A stretch of 64,000 bases of DNA, taken from positions 40,671-104,670 of the forward strand of contig JBAYJO010000001.1 in assembly GCA_041665085.1 (NCBI GenBank), read 5' to 3'. Position 1 is the first letter of the stretch, and every line of letters starts with the position of its first letter. Origin of the DNA: Patescibacteria group bacterium (GTDB lineage: Bacteria; Patescibacteriota; UBA1384; JBAYJO01). The position numbers were made by a program, and so were the translations under genes. Positions 9,854-55,867 of this stretch are shown here, piece by piece. The notes beneath the pieces are model-generated. The model was given only the letters and a program-made list of their open reading frames with translations. It ran no database searches and was not told where the DNA came from.

Positions 9854-10703
9854 ATTACTTGGTTCTGCATTTAAAAACGAAACAGTTCAGCCAGTGAGTA
9901 ATTTCGTTAGAATTACAGAAGAAATAGACCAACTTTTGTCGGAAGATACACCTGATAATCAGAAAGCATTAGAGGCTTTTGTTCTAAAACGTACTTCAGA
10001 ATTGACGGCAACTGCACCAGAAACTGAATATATTACATACAAAAAAGAAAAGCCACACAATGGTTTCATATCACCTAAAACTGAAGTTAAAGGCAAAATT
10101 ATGTATGATGGATTTCATTTAGATGATCCTGATTTATATCCTGCATTACTAAATGGATTAAAAGAATTAAAGTCAACTCCTGGATGGAAAGAAATGAGCA
10201 TAAAAGCTTTAGCAGTTCCAGCCGTAAACTATGCTGTATCAAAGTACTTTGGTAGTTATAAAATATCAGATGAACAAGAAAAACAAAATGCAGCTCATTA
10301 TATGAATCTTGGAGCTCCTTGTTCTATTAAAGAAATGAAGGGTAAAGGTATTGCTGTTTGTGCCGAAAAAGCAGCTGCCGCTCAAAATCTATTAACCTTT
10401 TTGGGGCTTGATTCAGAACTAGCAATGGCGGATTGCAAGCTTGATCCAAATCAAGAAGAAGGACCACATGCTTATAATATTGTTACGGGCCCAAATGGTC
10501 ATTTTATTTTTGATCCTACAAATCCTATTGTAAATGATAGTGCAGAGGGGCAACCGAATTATTTGCCAGCCACATATAAAATTTCAGATGAGCAATATGA
10601 ATCGCTGCAAAACCATCAAGCTGTTGAAGTAGCTCACACAAATACTAAGATTGTTGATGGGGAACAAGAAGCAGAAACAAATGCTAGAGTTTATAATGCT
10701 TAA
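9846..10703 (+). CDS. Hypothetical protein with possible transglutaminase-like Cys-His-Asp core
   Basis: GIAVCAEKAAAAQNLL ... GPHAYNIV ... FIFDPT resembles the transglutaminase-like cysteine peptidase core. Confidence 0.4.
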   Translation: MSELLGSAFKNETVQPVSNFVRITEEIDQLLSEDTPDNQKALEAFVLKRTSELTATAPETEYITYKKEKPHNGFISPKTEVKGKIMYDGFHLDDPDLYPALLNGLKELKSTPGWKEMSIKALAVPAVNYAVSKYFGSYKISDEQEKQNAAHYMNLGAPCSIKEMKGKGIAVCAEKAAAAQNLLTFLGLDSELAMADCKLDPNQEEGPHAYNIVTGPNGHFIFDPTNPIVNDSAEGQPNYLPATYKISDEQYESLQNHQAVEVAHTNTKIVDGEQEAETNARVYNA

Positions 10704-10762
10704 TTTTAAAAATTAGCTAAACCAAAATCTGGCAAAATAATATTATTTTCCTGCATGAAATA

Positions 10763-40525: not shown

Positions 40526-41078
40526 TTGCCTCTTTTTTTGTTTGATCTTCCCATAAAAATGTCATATTAAATGAAACAGTTGTTAGAGTTTCTGTTTGCG
40601 TTTCAGTAGTTGAACTATATGATGCTTTTTCGAAATAAGGAGAATCGTCGATTCTTTTTTTAAAGTTTTCTACATCCGGTCTGGTTTTTGTGGTTGCTGT
40701 AATAGTAAAAACAAGAGGAGTCCCTGTGATGCTTAAACTATTTATTTGAACATTTTGTGGAACTGTTTTTGAAAATTCTGATATTACTTGAGACCAGAGG
40801 ATGCGAGAACTTTTTAATTCGGTCAGTGAATCACTTTTATTAAAAATTTTACTTAAATCATTTTTTATCTTTTGTTGATTTTCAATTTTAACATTTAATT
40901 GTTCGATTTCTTTAGTGTTATTTATATCTCTCATTTCGTAAACTTCGTTAATATTTTTAAGGATAAACCAAGCAATAAAACTGATTAAAAAAACCGAAAG
41001 AGAAATTATAACAATAGCAAAATTTTGTTGTTTATGTTTTATTTTTAATTTTTCCGGTTCAGGCAGTAAATTTATCAT
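40509..41078 (-). CDS. pilN: Pilus assembly protein PilN
   Basis: MINLLPEPEK start. Single TM. Confidence 0.6.
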   Translation of the reverse strand: MINLLPEPEKLKIKHKQQNFAIVIISLSVFLISFIAWFILKNINEVYEMRDINNTKEIEQLNVKIENQQKIKNDLSKIFNKSDSLTELKSSRILWSQVISEFSKTVPQNVQINSLSITGTPLVFTITATTKTRPDVENFKKRIDDSPYFEKASYSSTTETQTETLTTVSFNMTFLWEDQTKKEANENKK

Positions 41079-50274: not shown

Positions 50275-52908
50275 ATGGCGCGAAAAGATGAAAAACTGAA
50301 TCAACTAAAATTGCCTCCTCAAAACATTGAGGCAGAAAAGAGTATTTTAGGTTCTATTCTTTTGGATAAAGATGCGATTTTGAAGATTGTTGATTTTTTA
50401 ACAGAAGATGATTTTTATTTGACCGAACATAAACTTATTTATGGTGCAATGGTTAAATTATTTGAAAAAAGATCTCCAATTGATCTGGTAACGCTATCTG
50501 ATGTTTTAGAATCTGAAAAACATTTAGACAGGGTTGGGGGCGCAGATTTTTTAAGCTCGCTTGTAAATGTGGTGCCAACAGCAGCTCATGTGATTGATTA
50601 TGCAAGAATCGTTTCAGATAAATCATCAAGGCAAAGGCTTATTTCTGCCGGTACTAAAATTGTTGAAATGGCATATAATGAAGAGATTGAAACTGCCGAG
50701 GTGATGGATAAATCAGAGCAGCAATTATTTAATGTGAGCCAAAAACAGGTTAAAGATAAATTTATTCCGATTAAAGATGTTTTAGTTGATAGTTTTAATA
50801 GATTGGATAAAATTCATAAGGAAAAAGGGACTTTAAGAGGAGTGCCATCGGGTTATAAGGATTTGGATAATTTACTTTCCGGTTTTCAGCCGTCAGATTT
50901 GTTAATTTTAGCAGCTCGTCCTTCAATGGGTAAAACATCTTTTGCTTTATCGATAGCGCAGCATGCAACAATTGATGAAAAAGTCGGAGTTGGTATTTTT
51001 TCTCTTGAAATGAGCAAGGAGCAGTTGGTTGATCGTTTGATTTGTTCTCAAGCCGGAGTTGATTCGTGGAAGCTTCGAAATGGACATTTGAGTGATGATG
51101 ATTTTAGAAATGTAGGTTATGCAATGGGGCATTTATCTGAAGCGCCTTTGTATATTGATGATTCGCCAATGCTTACAGTGTTAGATATTAGAACCAAAGC
51201 TAGAAGGTTGATGATGGAACAACCGCTTGGGTTAATTATTATTGATTATTTGCAGCTTATTTCAGGTTCATTTAAAAGTGATGGAAACAGAGTTCAAGAG
51301 ATTTCAGAGATTTCTCGAGCATTGAAAGGTTTAGCAAGAGAATTAAATGTGCCGGTGATGGCTCTTTCACAGCTTTCGCGTGCGGTTGAACATCGTGATA
51401 AAAAAGTGCCGCAGCTTTCTGATCTTCGTGAATCGGGCTGTTTAGCTGGCGATACTTTAATTTACAATGCTAAAACCGGACAAAATGAACAGATTAAAAA
51501 TTTGGTTGGAAAGGAATATGTTTGTTTGTCTCTTAATGATAAGAATAAATTAGTAAATACAAAATCTAGTAGGATTTTTTCAACTGGTAGAAAACAAATT
51601 TATGAATTAGTAATGGCTAGTGGTAAGCGAATCAAGGCGACTGCAAATCATAAGTTTTTGAAATTTTATGAGTGGGTTAGGTTAGATCGGTTGAGTGTTG
51701 GTGATTTTTTGGCGACTCCTCGGGAAATAAGATTTTCAGATTCAACTCAAGATATTTCTGATAATAAAATTATTTTATTAGCTCATTTAATTGGTGATGG
51801 CTGTTATTTGTCGCATCAACCTTTGCATTATACTAATGCTGATCCGCAATGTCTTAAAATTGTTGACGAGGTTTCTTATGATGAGTTTAAAACCAAAAAC
51901 AGATTAGTTAAGCAACAGAATTGGTTTCATTTGTATTTATCCGCACCAATTAAATTAGCACGAGGCAGAAAAAACCCTATTATAAAATGGTTAGATGAAG
52001 ATTTGAATATTTTTAATCAACGATCTGGAGAAAAAAGAATTCCAAAAATAGTTTTCTCTCTTGATAATAAAAAAGTATCTTTATTTATTAGTCATTTATT
52101 TGCAACTGATGGAGGATTAACAAAATCATCTGGAATTTGGAGGCTTCACTATGCTTCAAAAAGTAGAAGGCTGATCGAAGATTTGCAGCATTTATTGTTG
52201 AGATTTGAGATTCTTTCAAGAATTAAAGAAAATAAGAAAAAAGGATATGCAATTGTCTATGATTTAGTAATTTCGGGATCAGATAACCAGCTAAGTTTTT
52301 TGATAAATATCGGAATATTCGGAGAGAAGGAAAAAAATGTTAAACTTGCTATTGCTGAATTAAGAATGATTAATTCTAATACAAATGTTGATATTATACC
52401 ATCTGAAGTGTGGCAGAAAATTAAAGATGGCTTTATGAAACTAAATTGGTCTGCGCGGAAGTTTCATCAAGAAATGAATTGGGCTTATAGCGGCACGCAA
52501 AGATATAAAAATGGCTTATCCAGAGATCGTTTGGACAAAATTGCCGAGGTTCTTAAAAATAATGAATTAAAACAAATTGCTGATTCCGATATATTTTGGG
52601 ATCAAATTAAAGAAATAAATAAGCTGGGTGTTGAAGATGTTTATGATATAACAATTCCTGATAGTCATAATTTTATTGCAAATGATATGATCGTTCATAA
52701 TTCGATTGAGCAAGATGCAGATGTAGTGATGTTTATTTACCGAGAAGATTATTACGAGGCTGATACCGAAAGAAAAGGTATTACTGATATTTTAATTAGA
52801 AAACATAGAAACGGTCCCATTGGATCAGTTGAACTATTTTTTGTACCGGAACAGATGACGTTTAGATCAATTGATAAAAAAAGATCAGTGCCGAGTGAGA
52901 TAGAATAG
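50275..52908 (+). CDS. dnaB: Replicative DNA helicase DnaB interrupted by an intein
   Basis: DnaB N- and C-terminal domains. The extein sequence resumes at SIEQDADVVMFIYRE. Confidence 0.9.
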   Translation: MARKDEKLNQLKLPPQNIEAEKSILGSILLDKDAILKIVDFLTEDDFYLTEHKLIYGAMVKLFEKRSPIDLVTLSDVLESEKHLDRVGGADFLSSLVNVVPTAAHVIDYARIVSDKSSRQRLISAGTKIVEMAYNEEIETAEVMDKSEQQLFNVSQKQVKDKFIPIKDVLVDSFNRLDKIHKEKGTLRGVPSGYKDLDNLLSGFQPSDLLILAARPSMGKTSFALSIAQHATIDEKVGVGIFSLEMSKEQLVDRLICSQAGVDSWKLRNGHLSDDDFRNVGYAMGHLSEAPLYIDDSPMLTVLDIRTKARRLMMEQPLGLIIIDYLQLISGSFKSDGNRVQEISEISRALKGLARELNVPVMALSQLSRAVEHRDKKVPQLSDLRESGCLAGDTLIYNAKTGQNEQIKNLVGKEYVCLSLNDKNKLVNTKSSRIFSTGRKQIYELVMASGKRIKATANHKFLKFYEWVRLDRLSVGDFLATPREIRFSDSTQDISDNKIILLAHLIGDGCYLSHQPLHYTNADPQCLKIVDEVSYDEFKTKNRLVKQQNWFHLYLSAPIKLARGRKNPIIKWLDEDLNIFNQRSGEKRIPKIVFSLDNKKVSLFISHLFATDGGLTKSSGIWRLHYASKSRRLIEDLQHLLLRFEILSRIKENKKKGYAIVYDLVISGSDNQLSFLINIGIFGEKEKNVKLAIAELRMINSNTNVDIIPSEVWQKIKDGFMKLNWSARKFHQEMNWAYSGTQRYKNGLSRDRLDKIAEVLKNNELKQIADSDIFWDQIKEINKLGVEDVYDITIPDSHNFIANDMIVHNSIEQDADVVMFIYREDYYEADTERKGITDILIRKHRNGPIGSVELFFVPEQMTFRSIDKKRSVPSEIE
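51439..52701 (+). mobile_element. Intein (421 aa) with LAGLIDADG homing-endonuclease domain inside DnaB
   Basis: Begins CLAGDTLI (block A) and ends VHN with a +1 Ser. LAGLIDADG motifs LLAHLIGDGCY and LFISHLFATDGGL. Confidence 0.85.
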
Positions 52909-53051
52909 GTTTTTTTAAAAGGGACAAGAATTAATAATTGGAATGTAAAAGCCTGTGGATAACTCAAAAATTATTGCTCAATTATTTGTGGAAAAATGAG
53001 AGATTTTTTTTGTTTTAAACCTGTTGTTTAGATTGATTGCTACCTAAACCC

Positions 53052-53080
53052 TTGACAAATATTGCTAAGCGTATCATAAT
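53052..53080 (+). promoter_or_regulatory. Sigma70-like promoter TTGACA-N17-CATAAT
   Basis: Consensus -35 at 53052-53057 and -10 CATAAT at 53075-53080 with 17-nt spacing. Confidence 0.5.
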
Positions 53081-53087
53081 GATTAGA

Positions 53088-53397
53088 TTTGATGAAAAGC
53101 ACATTGAAAGACAAATTCAAGTTCACCAAGGAAATATTGCTTCAGGACGGTCGGAATCAATATTTCCTTGCAAGACTCTAGAGGGAAAGCAGAGAATGCA
53201 AAGAGTCTCAAAACAAGTGAGCAAGGAAAATATACTTAAAGGAAGAGAACAAACGTTTCTTACGCGAACCAAAATGGACGGGTAGGATGCGAAAGTAATC
53301 TATCCTAACATCTAAGGCGCGAAAGAAGCGGTCAATAATATAAGAACTATAGGCTGAATACTTCAATATAAATCGCGCCTTTTTCTATTTTTTTACA
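53088..53397 (+). ncRNA. Candidate ~300-nt structured ncRNA of unknown class
   Basis: No credible ORF. Perfect helices: GGAAATATTG/CAATATTTCC, GACTCT/AGAGTC, TAGGAT/ATCCTA. Terminal GGCGCGA/TCGCGCC stem followed by TTTTTCTATTTTTTT. Confidence 0.35.
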
Positions 53398-53500
53398 AAG
53401 TTGAATAATTGTTAATCTTAAAAAGAGATTGAGCACATGACGTTTTATTGTCTTGTGCTCGAGTATCTTGTTTGTAAATTCTCAAACAAGTAAAGCTGAT

Positions 53501-53740
53501 TCATAGGATGCTCCATGGTCCGGAACCTGCTAGAGGAGATGCTGACCTGCAGGACATGGCACATGTTGCTTCGTATGGTCCGAAGCATATTGCCTGTCGG
53601 CAGGGGCTTTGCGGGTCGCAGCTGGATAGGCATTCCTTGCACTTGCATTTTACGCATTCCGTTTGTGTTGCGTGTTCGCGGCATGCTTCTGTCTGTTGTC
53701 CGCCATGTTTGCGTGGTTGAGACATTGCTTCAGTTAGCAC
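53501..53740 (-). CDS. Possible small Cys-rich protein (10 Cys in 79 aa) in a GC-rich segment
   Basis: GGAGGT RBS 6 nt upstream of a GTG start. Every frame is open here, so coding status is uncertain. Confidence 0.3.
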   Translation of the reverse strand: MLTEAMSQPRKHGGQQTEACREHATQTECVKCKCKECLSSCDPQSPCRQAICFGPYEATCAMSCRSASPLAGSGPWSIL

Positions 53741-53863
53741 AACCTTACCTCCACGGTGAAGTGCTTGTAGTTTATATTTTATTTATAACTAACTTTAAAT
53801 ATTATTACAAATCGAATTGCTTAAAGGCTTGTTCTGGAACGATACTATGAGTAGAATGAAAAA

Positions 53864-55867
53864 GTGTCTAATATAGATTTACTTGAAGGTTTAAATGAAA
53901 GACAAAAAGAAGCGGTGCTTTTAACAGAAGGTCCGCTCCTTGTTATTGCCGGGGCTGGATCAGGAAAAACCAAGGTTTTGACGCATAGATTAGCCCATTT
54001 AATTCTTGATAAAAATATTAGTCCATATAGTATTTTGGCAGTTACATTTACAAATAAAGCAGCAGGGGAAATGGGTCAGCGAATGCATTCGCTACTCATT
54101 TCAAATTCCAAATATCAAATTCCAAATCCCAAAAAAAATCAAAATTCCGAACATACTGCCGACTTTATGAACTTTCAACTCGCCTCTTCGGCGAGCGCCG
54201 ATAAGGCGCTTTATGAACTTTCGACTAAATTGCCATGGCTTGGAACTTTTCACTCTATTTGCGTTAGGATTTTAAGAAAAGAAATTCAAAATATTGGCTA
54301 TGAGCGAAATTTTGTTATCTATGATTCAGATGATTCACTTTCTTGTATTAAAAAAATTATTAGGGAATTAAAATGGGATCCGAAGGAGATTAATCCAAAT
54401 TCTGTCAGAAATATGATTTCAAGTGCTAAGAGCGAATTTATTGACCCTAATACTTACGCGAAATATGCTGATGGATATTTTCAGGAAAAAGTAACGGAAA
54501 TTTATAAAAGATATCAAGATTTTTTGAGAAGATCTAATGCCCTTGATTTTGATGATTTGCTTAACCAGACATTAGTTTTATTTGAAGAAAAGCCGGAGAT
54601 TTTGTTTAAATATCAGGATTTATTTAAATATATTTTGATTGATGAGTATCAAGATACAAATCAAGCCCAGTATTTGCTGGCGAAAAAATTATCAGATAAA
54701 CACAAAAATATTTGCGTGGTTGGCGATGATTATCAAGCAATTTATTCTTGGCGTGGGGCAAATTTTAAAAATATTTTAAATTTTGAGCGAGATTATCCAA
54801 AGGCTAAAGTAGTAAAATTGGAACAAAATTATCGAAATAGTCAAAATATTATTCAAGCGTCAGAAAATGTGATTAAGAAAAATACTTTGCGTACAGATAA
54901 AAATATGTGGACGAAAAATGAAGAAGGGGCGCCGATTACGATTTATAAGGCAGCAGATGAGAGCGATGAGGCTGATTTTATTGTTGGTGAAATTGTAACT
55001 CTTAAAAAAGCAGGTGAAAGTTTAAATTCAATGGCGATTTTGTATCGAACAAATGCTCAATCAAGATCTCTTGAAGAAGCATTTTTGAATTATGGCATTC
55101 CATATCGGGTTATTGGTTCCTTGAAGTTTTATGAAAGACGAGAAATTAAAGATATAATTTCTTATTTGCGTTTAATAGTAAATCCGTCTGATTTTATTGC
55201 TTTTGAACGAGCGGTATCAGTACCTCCTCGAGGCATTGGCGATAAAACAATAGAACAGTTAGTAAAAATTCCAAATTACAAATCCCAAATTACAAATAAA
55301 TCTCAAATCCTAAATCTCAATATTCAAAAAAAAATGCAGGATTTTTTGATTATGATTGAAGATTTAAGAAATATGGCGGCGGAGAATTTACCGGCAGATT
55401 TTATTGATATTTTAACTGCCCGAACTAATTATCGAAGTTATTTGGTTGATGGGACTATTGAAGGGGAAGCAAGATGGGAAAATGTTGAGGAGCTTAAAAC
55501 AGTAGCGCAGAATTTTGATAGTCTAGAATCTTTTTTGGAAAATATTGCTTTGATGACTGATCTTGATGAATATGATGAAGCTAAAGAATCTGTGACTTTA
55601 ATGACAATGCATTGTGCTAAAGGTCTTGAGTTTGAAACGGTTTTTATTGCAGGAATGGAAGAAGGCCTTTTTCCTCATTCAAGATCAATTAGCGAGCCGA
55701 ACGAAATGGAAGAGGAGAGACGGCTTTGTTATGTCGGGATGACTCGAGCCAAAATGAGGCTTTATATGATTTATGCGGGTTCCAGAACAGTTTTTGGACG
55801 AACTCAAATGGGAATTAAATCGCGTTTTTTAAACGAGATTCCAGAGTGGTTGTGCGAGGAGATTTAG
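53864..55867 (+). CDS. UvrD/PcrA-family ATP-dependent DNA helicase
   Basis: Walker A AGAGSGKT, motif II DEYQDTN, motif III GDDYQAIYSWRGA, NYRN. Contains in-frame repeat-derived insertions. Confidence 0.9.
   Translation: MSNIDLLEGLNERQKEAVLLTEGPLLVIAGAGSGKTKVLTHRLAHLILDKNISPYSILAVTFTNKAAGEMGQRMHSLLISNSKYQIPNPKKNQNSEHTADFMNFQLASSASADKALYELSTKLPWLGTFHSICVRILRKEIQNIGYERNFVIYDSDDSLSCIKKIIRELKWDPKEINPNSVRNMISSAKSEFIDPNTYAKYADGYFQEKVTEIYKRYQDFLRRSNALDFDDLLNQTLVLFEEKPEILFKYQDLFKYILIDEYQDTNQAQYLLAKKLSDKHKNICVVGDDYQAIYSWRGANFKNILNFERDYPKAKVVKLEQNYRNSQNIIQASENVIKKNTLRTDKNMWTKNEEGAPITIYKAADESDEADFIVGEIVTLKKAGESLNSMAILYRTNAQSRSLEEAFLNYGIPYRVIGSLKFYERREIKDIISYLRLIVNPSDFIAFERAVSVPPRGIGDKTIEQLVKIPNYKSQITNKSQILNLNIQKKMQDFLIMIEDLRNMAAENLPADFIDILTARTNYRSYLVDGTIEGEARWENVEELKTVAQNFDSLESFLENIALMTDLDEYDEAKESVTLMTMHCAKGLEFETVFIAGMEEGLFPHSRSISEPNEMEEERRLCYVGMTRAKMRLYMIYAGSRTVFGRTQMGIKSRFLNEIPEWLCEEI
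54164..54232 (+). repeat. RPE-like palindromic element inserted in-frame in the helicase gene
   Basis: CTCGCC-TCTTC-GGCGAG and GCGCC-GATAA-GGCGC hairpins, flanked by direct repeats CTTTATGAACTTTC(A/G)ACT. Confidence 0.6.

Follow-up and report, generated by a model that had tools for sequence, protein, structure and literature searches.

In the 64,000-nt stretch of Patescibacteria DNA analysed here (from JBAYJO010000001.1, a metagenome contig of ~150 kb; hereafter the window), a gap of 955 bp lies between dnaB and uvrD/pcrA, with dnaX upstream; the best named relatives of the window UvrD are Berkelbacteria. An initial annotation, made from the sequence alone, had placed in this gap a stand-alone transcription unit encoding a highly structured noncoding RNA (ncRNA) of unknown class. 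Comparison with related loci shows, as far as sequence can tell, that positions 53087–53384 of the forward strand are a conserved, non-coding, structured and autonomous RNA gene of ~300 nt, with a conserved core made up of an alternative helix termed M:B, a hairpin termed Hm, and a 3′ domain (Table 1).

The gene is preceded by a sigma-70-type promoter, which agrees with the consensus at 11 of 12 positions and ranks top among the sigma-70-like sites within 52700–54000, just as its first description as near-consensus had it. A perfect TTGACA and a 17-nt spacer were present in 11/11 promoters examined (the window and ten homologues), from which strong expression of the RNA would be expected. At the other end, the GGCGCGA/TCGCGCC stem (helix Pa) and the T tract noted earlier were readily recovered; a simple terminator scan did not report this predicted intrinsic terminator because the enclosed loop is long. 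The claim of extensive structure was likewise upheld, with a minimum free energy (MFE) of −75.8 kcal/mol for the forward strand versus −56.3 ± 4.2 for dinucleotide shuffles (z = −4.6), while the reverse strand gave z = −3.3. Nearly every member among the 11 promoters also carries a second TATAAT-like element (often TATAATC) two bases past the −10 hexamer, degenerate in the window (GATTAGAT, 53075–53090), that could act as an alternative −10 or in sigma-dependent pausing.

The earlier statement that these ~300 nt hold no plausible open reading frame (ORF) needs qualification. An ORF is present over the RNA, running from 53037 (82 aa, from an upstream TTG) or 53079 (68 aa) to 53285, its shorter version being the NCBI hypothetical protein WCW17_00505; two pipelines call a gene here. 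What stands is that it does not behave as a gene: among 5.8 billion proteins it has no homologue but itself, it has no Pfam match, and its frame is disrupted relative to the closest related locus, L162, by indels of 1, 2, 4, 5, and 8 nt, with no gene called there. WCW17_00505 is therefore very probably a spurious ORF over an RNA gene, and one ‘hypothetical protein’ may be dropped from the annotation.

L162 aligns with the window from just upstream of the promoter through the terminator. Over the RNA the two are 77% identical (211/275 aligned columns), compared with 39% at four-fold degenerate sites of the flanking uvrD and dnaB, which are saturated (chance ~30%). This difference, together with the broken ORF, argues that the RNA sequence is under strong purifying selection and non-coding, and the conservation in relatives on which the initial annotation had staked its proposal is borne out.

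Used alone as query (nhmmer, blastn), the window RNA matched none of 160 uvrD-anchored loci and no other site in the window, and a BLAST search of phages was likewise negative. Members were found by synteny, on the contigs of the closest UvrD proteins (55–69% identity), and then by covariance models and inspection. The order dnaB–gap–uvrD is conserved on these contigs, with a related module in every gap. This way, we collected at least 15 members (the window and 14 homologues), all in the dnaX–dnaB–uvrD neighbourhood of related uncultured Patescibacteria; as the count comes from protein-anchored retrieval, it is a lower bound on the taxonomic spread. Nine are of a short type with two upstream DnaA boxes (the window, L162, L172, L175, L176, L177, L178, L180, and L003), three are short with no perfect boxes in the sequence examined (L006, L007, and L082, the 5′ end and upstream region of L007 being cut by the contig end), and three are of a long type of 400–650 nt (L004, L107, and L179). 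Two covariance models, R1 and R2, were built on the 3′ domain, with L178 kept out of R1. Outside its training set, R2 matched L178 (32 bits), L180 (39), L179 (34), L004 (26.2), L107 (22.8), and L003 (20.7), each time where promoter, synteny and other motifs predict. Weak matches to the 3′-domain models elsewhere in the window, at 40985–41062 on the reverse strand (25.7 bits; at the end of a coding region) and 10672–10753 on the forward strand (20.4 bits), lie in AT-rich sequence and are probably chance or ordinary terminators. A scan of viral contigs with a conserved 17-mer gave eight matches, none fitting the two-sequence RNA profile (nhmmer), and these were treated as chance.

The gene also moves as a unit. 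In L177 and L178, the boxes, promoter, RNA, and terminator all lie together on the strand opposite dnaB and uvrD; in L003 the module is downstream of uvrD, and in the window, L082, L179, and L180 other genes intervene between it and uvrD. The module is therefore a stand-alone gene, as first proposed, and not a uvrD leader.

Several helices covary in the relatives, by our approximation of a covariation analysis, and the clearest case is the 3′ domain, in which three helices (Pa, Pb, and Pc) are stacked. Its loop opens with a conserved CAAUAAUUAAA-like motif, and the AAUAAUU loop, the A-rich bulge, Pb and Pc are all conserved. In a hand alignment of six sequences, 99% of cells were paired and 12/23 pairs had double-sided changes. 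The model-based alignment of 13 sequences gave 88.5% paired cells versus 30–40% in slid controls, double-sided changes in 19 of 22 pairs, and a covariation score of 0.62 versus 0.18; none of 500 shuffles attained these values. No U tract follows the domain in the long-type members, one of which (L179) has a separate terminator beyond it. Persistence without a U tract argues that the 3′ domain is a functional part of the RNA and more than a terminator, although in the short type it doubles as the predicted terminator and in the window it very probably terminates transcription as well. That it is a plain intrinsic terminator was considered and is ruled out by this persistence and by the conserved Pb, Pc, bulge and loop.

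The 5′ half is organized around a pyrimidine strand, M, that has two possible partners. The perfect helix GGAAATATTG/CAATATTTCC with which the region had been showcased is real and belongs to a perfect 13-bp hairpin, H1 (helix A:M); the account has to be amended, as this hairpin competes with the alternative helix M:B, which is conserved even better. The two are mutually exclusive, since M is common to both, and B is a near-copy of A. Computed in Python over seven lineages, the pairing counts were 62/63 cells for M:B, 60 of them Watson–Crick, and 56/63 for A:M. The M core itself differs between lineages (TTTCCTTGC, TGATCCTAC, GTCCTTACC, CCTTCTTGC, TTCCCTATC, ATCTCTACT), and cross-species pairings average 5.2–5.4 of 9. 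By eye, M:B can also be made out in the long type (L004, for instance, has GUUCUUAC/GUAAGAAC) and in L180. The MFE state was A:M in eight of eight short RNAs, and forcing M:B cost 0.5–13.8 kcal/mol more. That evolution has kept the higher-energy M:B almost perfect suggests, in these folding models, a conformational switch between A:M and M:B.

Segment A carries or adjoins CAAGGAGGG (in the window, CAAGGAAAT), a Shine–Dalgarno (SD)-like string that is the best-conserved primary motif of the 5′ half and is followed by ACGGUGG (53147–53154 in the window). Short ORFs come after CAAGGAGGG, but neither their length nor their sequence is conserved, which is why we take CAAGGAGGG for a motif of the RNA rather than for the ribosome-binding site of a peptide. 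Farther downstream, the strands of Hm are a pyrimidine CUCUUUCU and a purine GGAAGGAG in other members. Over 12 sequences, 86.9% of Hm cells were paired versus 57–72% in slid controls, and six of nine pairs change on both sides, including a flip from U–A to A–U in the window. MAFFT with RNAalifold misaligned the helices of divergent members, and N-padded hand alignments and model-based realignment were used for that reason.

Table 1. Positions of the RNA gene, its elements and neighbouring features in the window
Feature	Position	Strand	Details
dnaB	50275–52908		Flanks the gap
DnaA box 1	52954–52962	−	TTATCCACA; only perfect TTATCCACA in the 64-kb window
DnaA box 2	52987–52995	−	TTTTCCACA; 33 nt start-to-start from box 1
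AACCTGTT motif	53018–53025	+	Between DnaA boxes and −35
Sigma-70-type promoter	53052–53080	+	TTGACA-17-CATAAT; −35 at 53052–53057, −10 at 53075–53080
Predicted RNA, ~298 nt	53087–53384	+	5′ end from −10 position, 3′ end from first U run
Hairpin H1, helix A:M	53127–53170	+	Strand A, CAAGGAAATATTG (53127–53139), with strand M, CAATATTTCCTTG (53158–53170); conserved ACGGTCGG (53147–53154) within apical loop
Alternative helix M:B	53163–53229	+	TTTCCTTGC (53163–53171) with GCAAGGAAA (53221–53229); closes A-rich linker
Hairpin AGACTCT...AGAGTCT	53173–53208	+	Window-specific, not in L162
Hm hairpin	53258–53287	+	TCTTAC (53258–53263) with GTAGGA (53282–53287); inner stem-loop between strands
Hairpin GGGTAGG...CTATCC	53280–53305	+	GCGAAAG loop; common only to window and L162; overlaps Hm 3′ strand
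3′ domain	53316–53379	+	Three stacked helices; from covariance models R1/R2 and covariation
Helix Pa	53316–53322 with 53373–53379	+	GGCGCGA with TCGCGCC; then TTTTTCTATTTTTTT
Helix Pb	53325–53328 with 53361–53364	+	
Helix Pc	53329–53333 with 53352–53356	+	
3′-domain loop	53334–53351	+	Conserved CAAUAAU motif
A-rich 4-nt bulge	53357–53360	+	3′ strand; AAUA, ACAA or AUAA across members
U tract	53380–53394	+	TTTTTCTATTTTTTT; with Pa, predicted intrinsic terminator
Hairpin GAGCACA.GAC...GTC..GTGCTC	53432–53461		Kept in L162 (9376–9405)
GC-rich island	53490–53745		52% versus 34.5% across the window
Cysteine-rich ORF, 79 aa	53501–53740	−	GGAGG ribosome-binding site
uvrD/pcrA	53864–55867		Flanks the gap

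Upstream of the promoter, nine members carry two perfect DnaA boxes (TTWTCCACA; TTATCCACA or TTTTCCACA) at 11–91 nt from the −35 hexamer. These pairs are almost the only perfect boxes in loci of 8–22 kb, and in L177 and L178 they are inverted along with the gene. The number of perfect boxes in the whole window (three versus 2.1 expected) is not unusual; the signal is that they cluster and that this recurs across nine diverged genomes, between which the flanking DNA cannot be aligned. Consensus boxes near a promoter, the mark of a DnaA-regulated transcription unit, are present at this locus. DnaA binds box pairs outside the origin and regulates genes for replication, repair and RNA metabolism (PMC11317965), and it may modulate the RNA promoter here. 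Inspection by eye located the AACCTGTT motif, usually placed between the boxes and the −35, in the window, L162, L172, L176, L178, and L180, and as CTCCTGTT in L175 and AACCTGG in L003, and AT-rich, sometimes repetitive DNA follows the box pair, such as 3 × AATTTTC in L176. An origin-type GC skew switch was sought and not found, skew being positive on both sides of the locus, nor did the window contain a dnaA signature. Reading the locus primarily as oriC was rejected, given the missing skew switch, only two boxes, and no dnaA nearby.

Screened at gathering score against Rfam 15, the 64-kb window yielded only two tRNAs, and at E ≤ 10 the interval 52850–53900 gave only hairpin-like microRNA and CRISPR noise far below the cut-offs. 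No Rfam family was found at the RNA locus of L162, L172, L175–L178, L006, L007, or L003 either, so the class remains as unnamed as in the initial annotation, and our literature search found no description of this RNA. On this evidence, it is a new RNA family of Berkelbacteria-like Patescibacteria (candidate phyla radiation, CPR), absent from Rfam 15. Sub-threshold matches to the Rfam entry n00280 (‘C. difficile sRNA included into helicase gene’) in L178 (7803–7875), L006 (5802–5890), and L007 (2364–2458) fall inside the uvrD coding sequence and most likely reflect conserved helicase codons, not RNA.

We propose that the RNA would act in trans, either as a regulator or within a ribonucleoprotein (RNP) as its RNA component, and that the two upstream DnaA boxes would tie its synthesis to the state of the initiator DnaA. 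A partner, which might be a protein or a pyrimidine-rich RNA (an anti-SD-like sequence, for example), would engage segment A, whereupon M could re-pair with B and the RNA adopt its second, covariation-supported conformation. Taken as a whole (an ncRNA gene, action in trans, DnaA-linked synthesis and A:M/M:B switching), we hold this explanation with moderate confidence. A more specific version, in which a CPR-specific riboregulator couples replication to translation, with DnaA setting transcription and the A:M/M:B toggle exposing or hiding tracts for contact with ribosomes or mRNAs, SD-like (CAAGGAGGG, GGAAGGAG) as well as anti-SD-like (CUCUUUCUU), is speculative and we would expect it to be wrong rather than right.

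Several observations weigh against the proposed explanation. The RNA gene is known from sequence alone, its transcript being predicted, and function, action in trans, DnaA control and switching are what we infer on top of it; every family sequence, moreover, comes from a metagenome assembly or a metagenome-assembled genome. Purine and pyrimidine tracts pair promiscuously, as the 57–72% of the slid Hm controls illustrate, and several alignments were hand-fitted to the helices or fitted to a model, so that their paired percentages are inflated. Three members rest on low model scores plus context (L003, L107, and L004, at the values given above). As for the boxes, perfect copies are absent from the sequence examined in L006, L082, L004, L107, and L179, with L007 not scorable owing to its contig end; where they occur, their distance to the promoter ranges over 11–91 nt and their spacing over 1–31 nt, versus the 2–3 bp preferred in E. 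coli (PMC11317965).

The most obvious competitor is a divergent housekeeping RNA—signal recognition particle (SRP) RNA, 6S RNA, RNase P RNA, or transfer-messenger RNA (tmRNA)—that Rfam models fail to recognise. The very strong, strictly conserved promoter would suit such an RNA, as would conservation that reaches into the loops, which is typical of RNP RNAs; the size is like that of long SRP RNA, RNase P RNA or tmRNA, and none of the universal RNAs was found in the 64-kb window. The SRP RNA gene scr adjoins dnaX in Bacillus subtilis, and some members contain a CCGGAAGGA string reminiscent of the tetraloop region in SRP helix 8. The defining motifs and the Rfam and ARAGORN matches are absent, however, and the architecture is another one. 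No SRP, 6S, RNase P or tmRNA model matched at E ≤ 10 in the window and L003 or at E ≤ 1 in six further loci; this covers RF00169 and RF01854 for SRP RNA and RF00010 and RF00011 for RNase P RNA (all at E ≤ 10 in the window and L003), as well as RF00013 for 6S RNA (in the window and the searched homologous loci). ARAGORN reported only tRNA-Gln and tRNA-Glu in the window and no tmRNA, for which Rfam had no match either; a tRNA-like end and a P4 motif are missing, and the RNase P motifs GAGGAAAGUCC and ACAGAA...GGCUUA were not seen in the window sequence, in line with the motif checks reported earlier. The GGAA is no conserved tetraloop: GGAAGG forms the 3′ side of Hm, a helix that covaries, and the tetraloop hairpin is missing from L177, L178, and L003. 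Finally, a multi-domain RNA of 300–650 nt differs from the single long rod with a central bubble (~160–200 nt) that is 6S RNA. We regard a hidden housekeeping RNA as improbable. The same holds for a CsrB/RsmZ-type sponge or SD mimic, titrating an RNA-binding protein (CsrA, for instance) or the 30S anti-SD through repeated AAGGA/GGAGG motifs. Like CsrB, RsmY and RsmZ, the RNA ends in a terminator and has several AAGGA-type purine motifs, with three conserved purine-rich segments (A, B, and the 3′ strand of Hm); relative to mononucleotide shuffles, most members are ~3- to 6-fold enriched in AAGGA. Yet each RNA has only 2–5 ANGGA motifs, with no AAGGA in L177; most of these motifs lie within helices rather than in loops of short, repeated hairpins, and the RNA is non-repetitive with unique covarying domains. 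Searched by motif, the window and 15 loci, a small part of each genome, contained no CsrA-like ORF.

The functional unit could also be the DNA, a DnaA-box locus for titration or reactivation, or a (secondary) origin, with the promoter as modulator and the RNA secondary. Promoters do modulate origins, as mioC and gidA at E. coli oriC and the primer RNA II of ColE1 illustrate, and one strand with two alternative partners recalls the alpha/beta/gamma switch of the latter. The conserved perfect box pair with its AT-rich, partly repetitive sequel (the AATTTTC repeats of L176) and the site among replication genes fit this idea, and CcnA is a precedent for a regulatory ncRNA that lies within an origin (PMC8959179). 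Against it, selection acts strongly on RNA sequence and base pairing far from the boxes, six members keep the RNA without perfect boxes in the sequence examined, transcription leads away from the boxes towards a terminator, where it stops, and only two boxes stand in a region of positive skew on both sides; we consider it unlikely. Far less credible is a cis-acting leader, whether riboswitch or leader-peptide attenuator, of the downstream uvrD/pcrA, for all that the SD-like CAAGGAGGG is followed by short ORFs of 6–21 codons across segment M, mutually exclusive helices are combined with a terminator, and uvrD begins 30–70 nt past that terminator in L175, L176, and L006. The inverted, relocated and gene-separated modules described above speak against any such role; in addition, the short ORFs are unconserved and missing from L082, and neither alternative helix overlaps the terminator. 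Least probable of all, to the point of being barely worth entertaining, is that the transcript is the mRNA of WCW17_00505: an ORF called by two pipelines does exist, but it lacks homologues and Pfam matches and is frame-shifted in L162, no SD precedes its ATG, which shares bases with the −10 hexamer and thus comes before the probable start of transcription, and the substitutions preserve base pairs, not codons.

Among described RNAs, the family is closest in kind to the raiA motif RNA (ModT, PMC11706538) and OLE RNA, likewise stand-alone genes of a few hundred nucleotides with their own promoter and terminator, covarying helices and conserved loops, restricted to certain lineages and with a biochemical role that is not obvious from sequence. 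It differs from them in having no sequence or structure match (Rfam 15), in its host range (Patescibacteria versus Bacillota/Actinomycetota), and in the dnaX–dnaB–uvrD synteny and upstream DnaA boxes that are specific to the Patescibacteria family. CcnA of Caulobacter crescentus, an origin-embedded and cell-cycle-controlled ncRNA (PMC8959179), offers a parallel for an ncRNA gene linked to replication-control sites, here DnaA boxes through which the regulator may exert control. CcnA acts on the ribosome-binding regions of mRNAs (PMC8959179), and a similar link from replication to expression may exist for the Patescibacteria RNA. In contrast, CcnA is 182 nt long, lies inside the origin and is controlled through CtrA boxes, whereas the RNA described here is ~300–650 nt, shows no skew switch, has DnaA boxes and shares no homology with it. 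With known DnaA-regulated promoters and DnaA-box pairs outside oriC (E. coli chromatin immunoprecipitation sequencing, PMC11317965; intergenic regions bound by DnaA in B. subtilis, PMC2533591) the locus shares two consensus 9-mers upstream of a promoter and a replication/repair neighbourhood; it departs from them in that the putatively controlled gene is an ncRNA and in box spacing (14–31 nt in the closer relatives and 1 nt in L003, versus the 2–3 bp of E. coli).

Patescibacteria make up a large share of bacterial diversity, and regulation in their tiny genomes has hardly been studied experimentally. That reduced genomes conserve an RNA gene of 300–650 nt beside their replication genes makes an important role likely. 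The physical coupling of gene and DnaA boxes suggests a direct route by which the replication initiator would reach an RNA effector, and to our knowledge no such case is known in another bacterium. For Rfam curators, and for those who mine metatranscriptomes, the family is a defined target.

The neighbourhood of the RNA gene has further features of its own. The dnaB of the window is interrupted by an intein with a LAGLIDADG homing endonuclease, giving a product of 877 aa, whereas the DnaB proteins of relatives are intein-free and 451–477 aa long. Between the RNA gene and uvrD, the GC-rich island contains the 79-aa cysteine-rich ORF, which has no Pfam match; L162 has a similar but shorter stretch (QSPCR..C.GPY..C) with no start codon. 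The hairpin at 53432–53461 is followed by a T run on the reverse strand and is therefore probably the terminator of this convergent reverse-strand gene.

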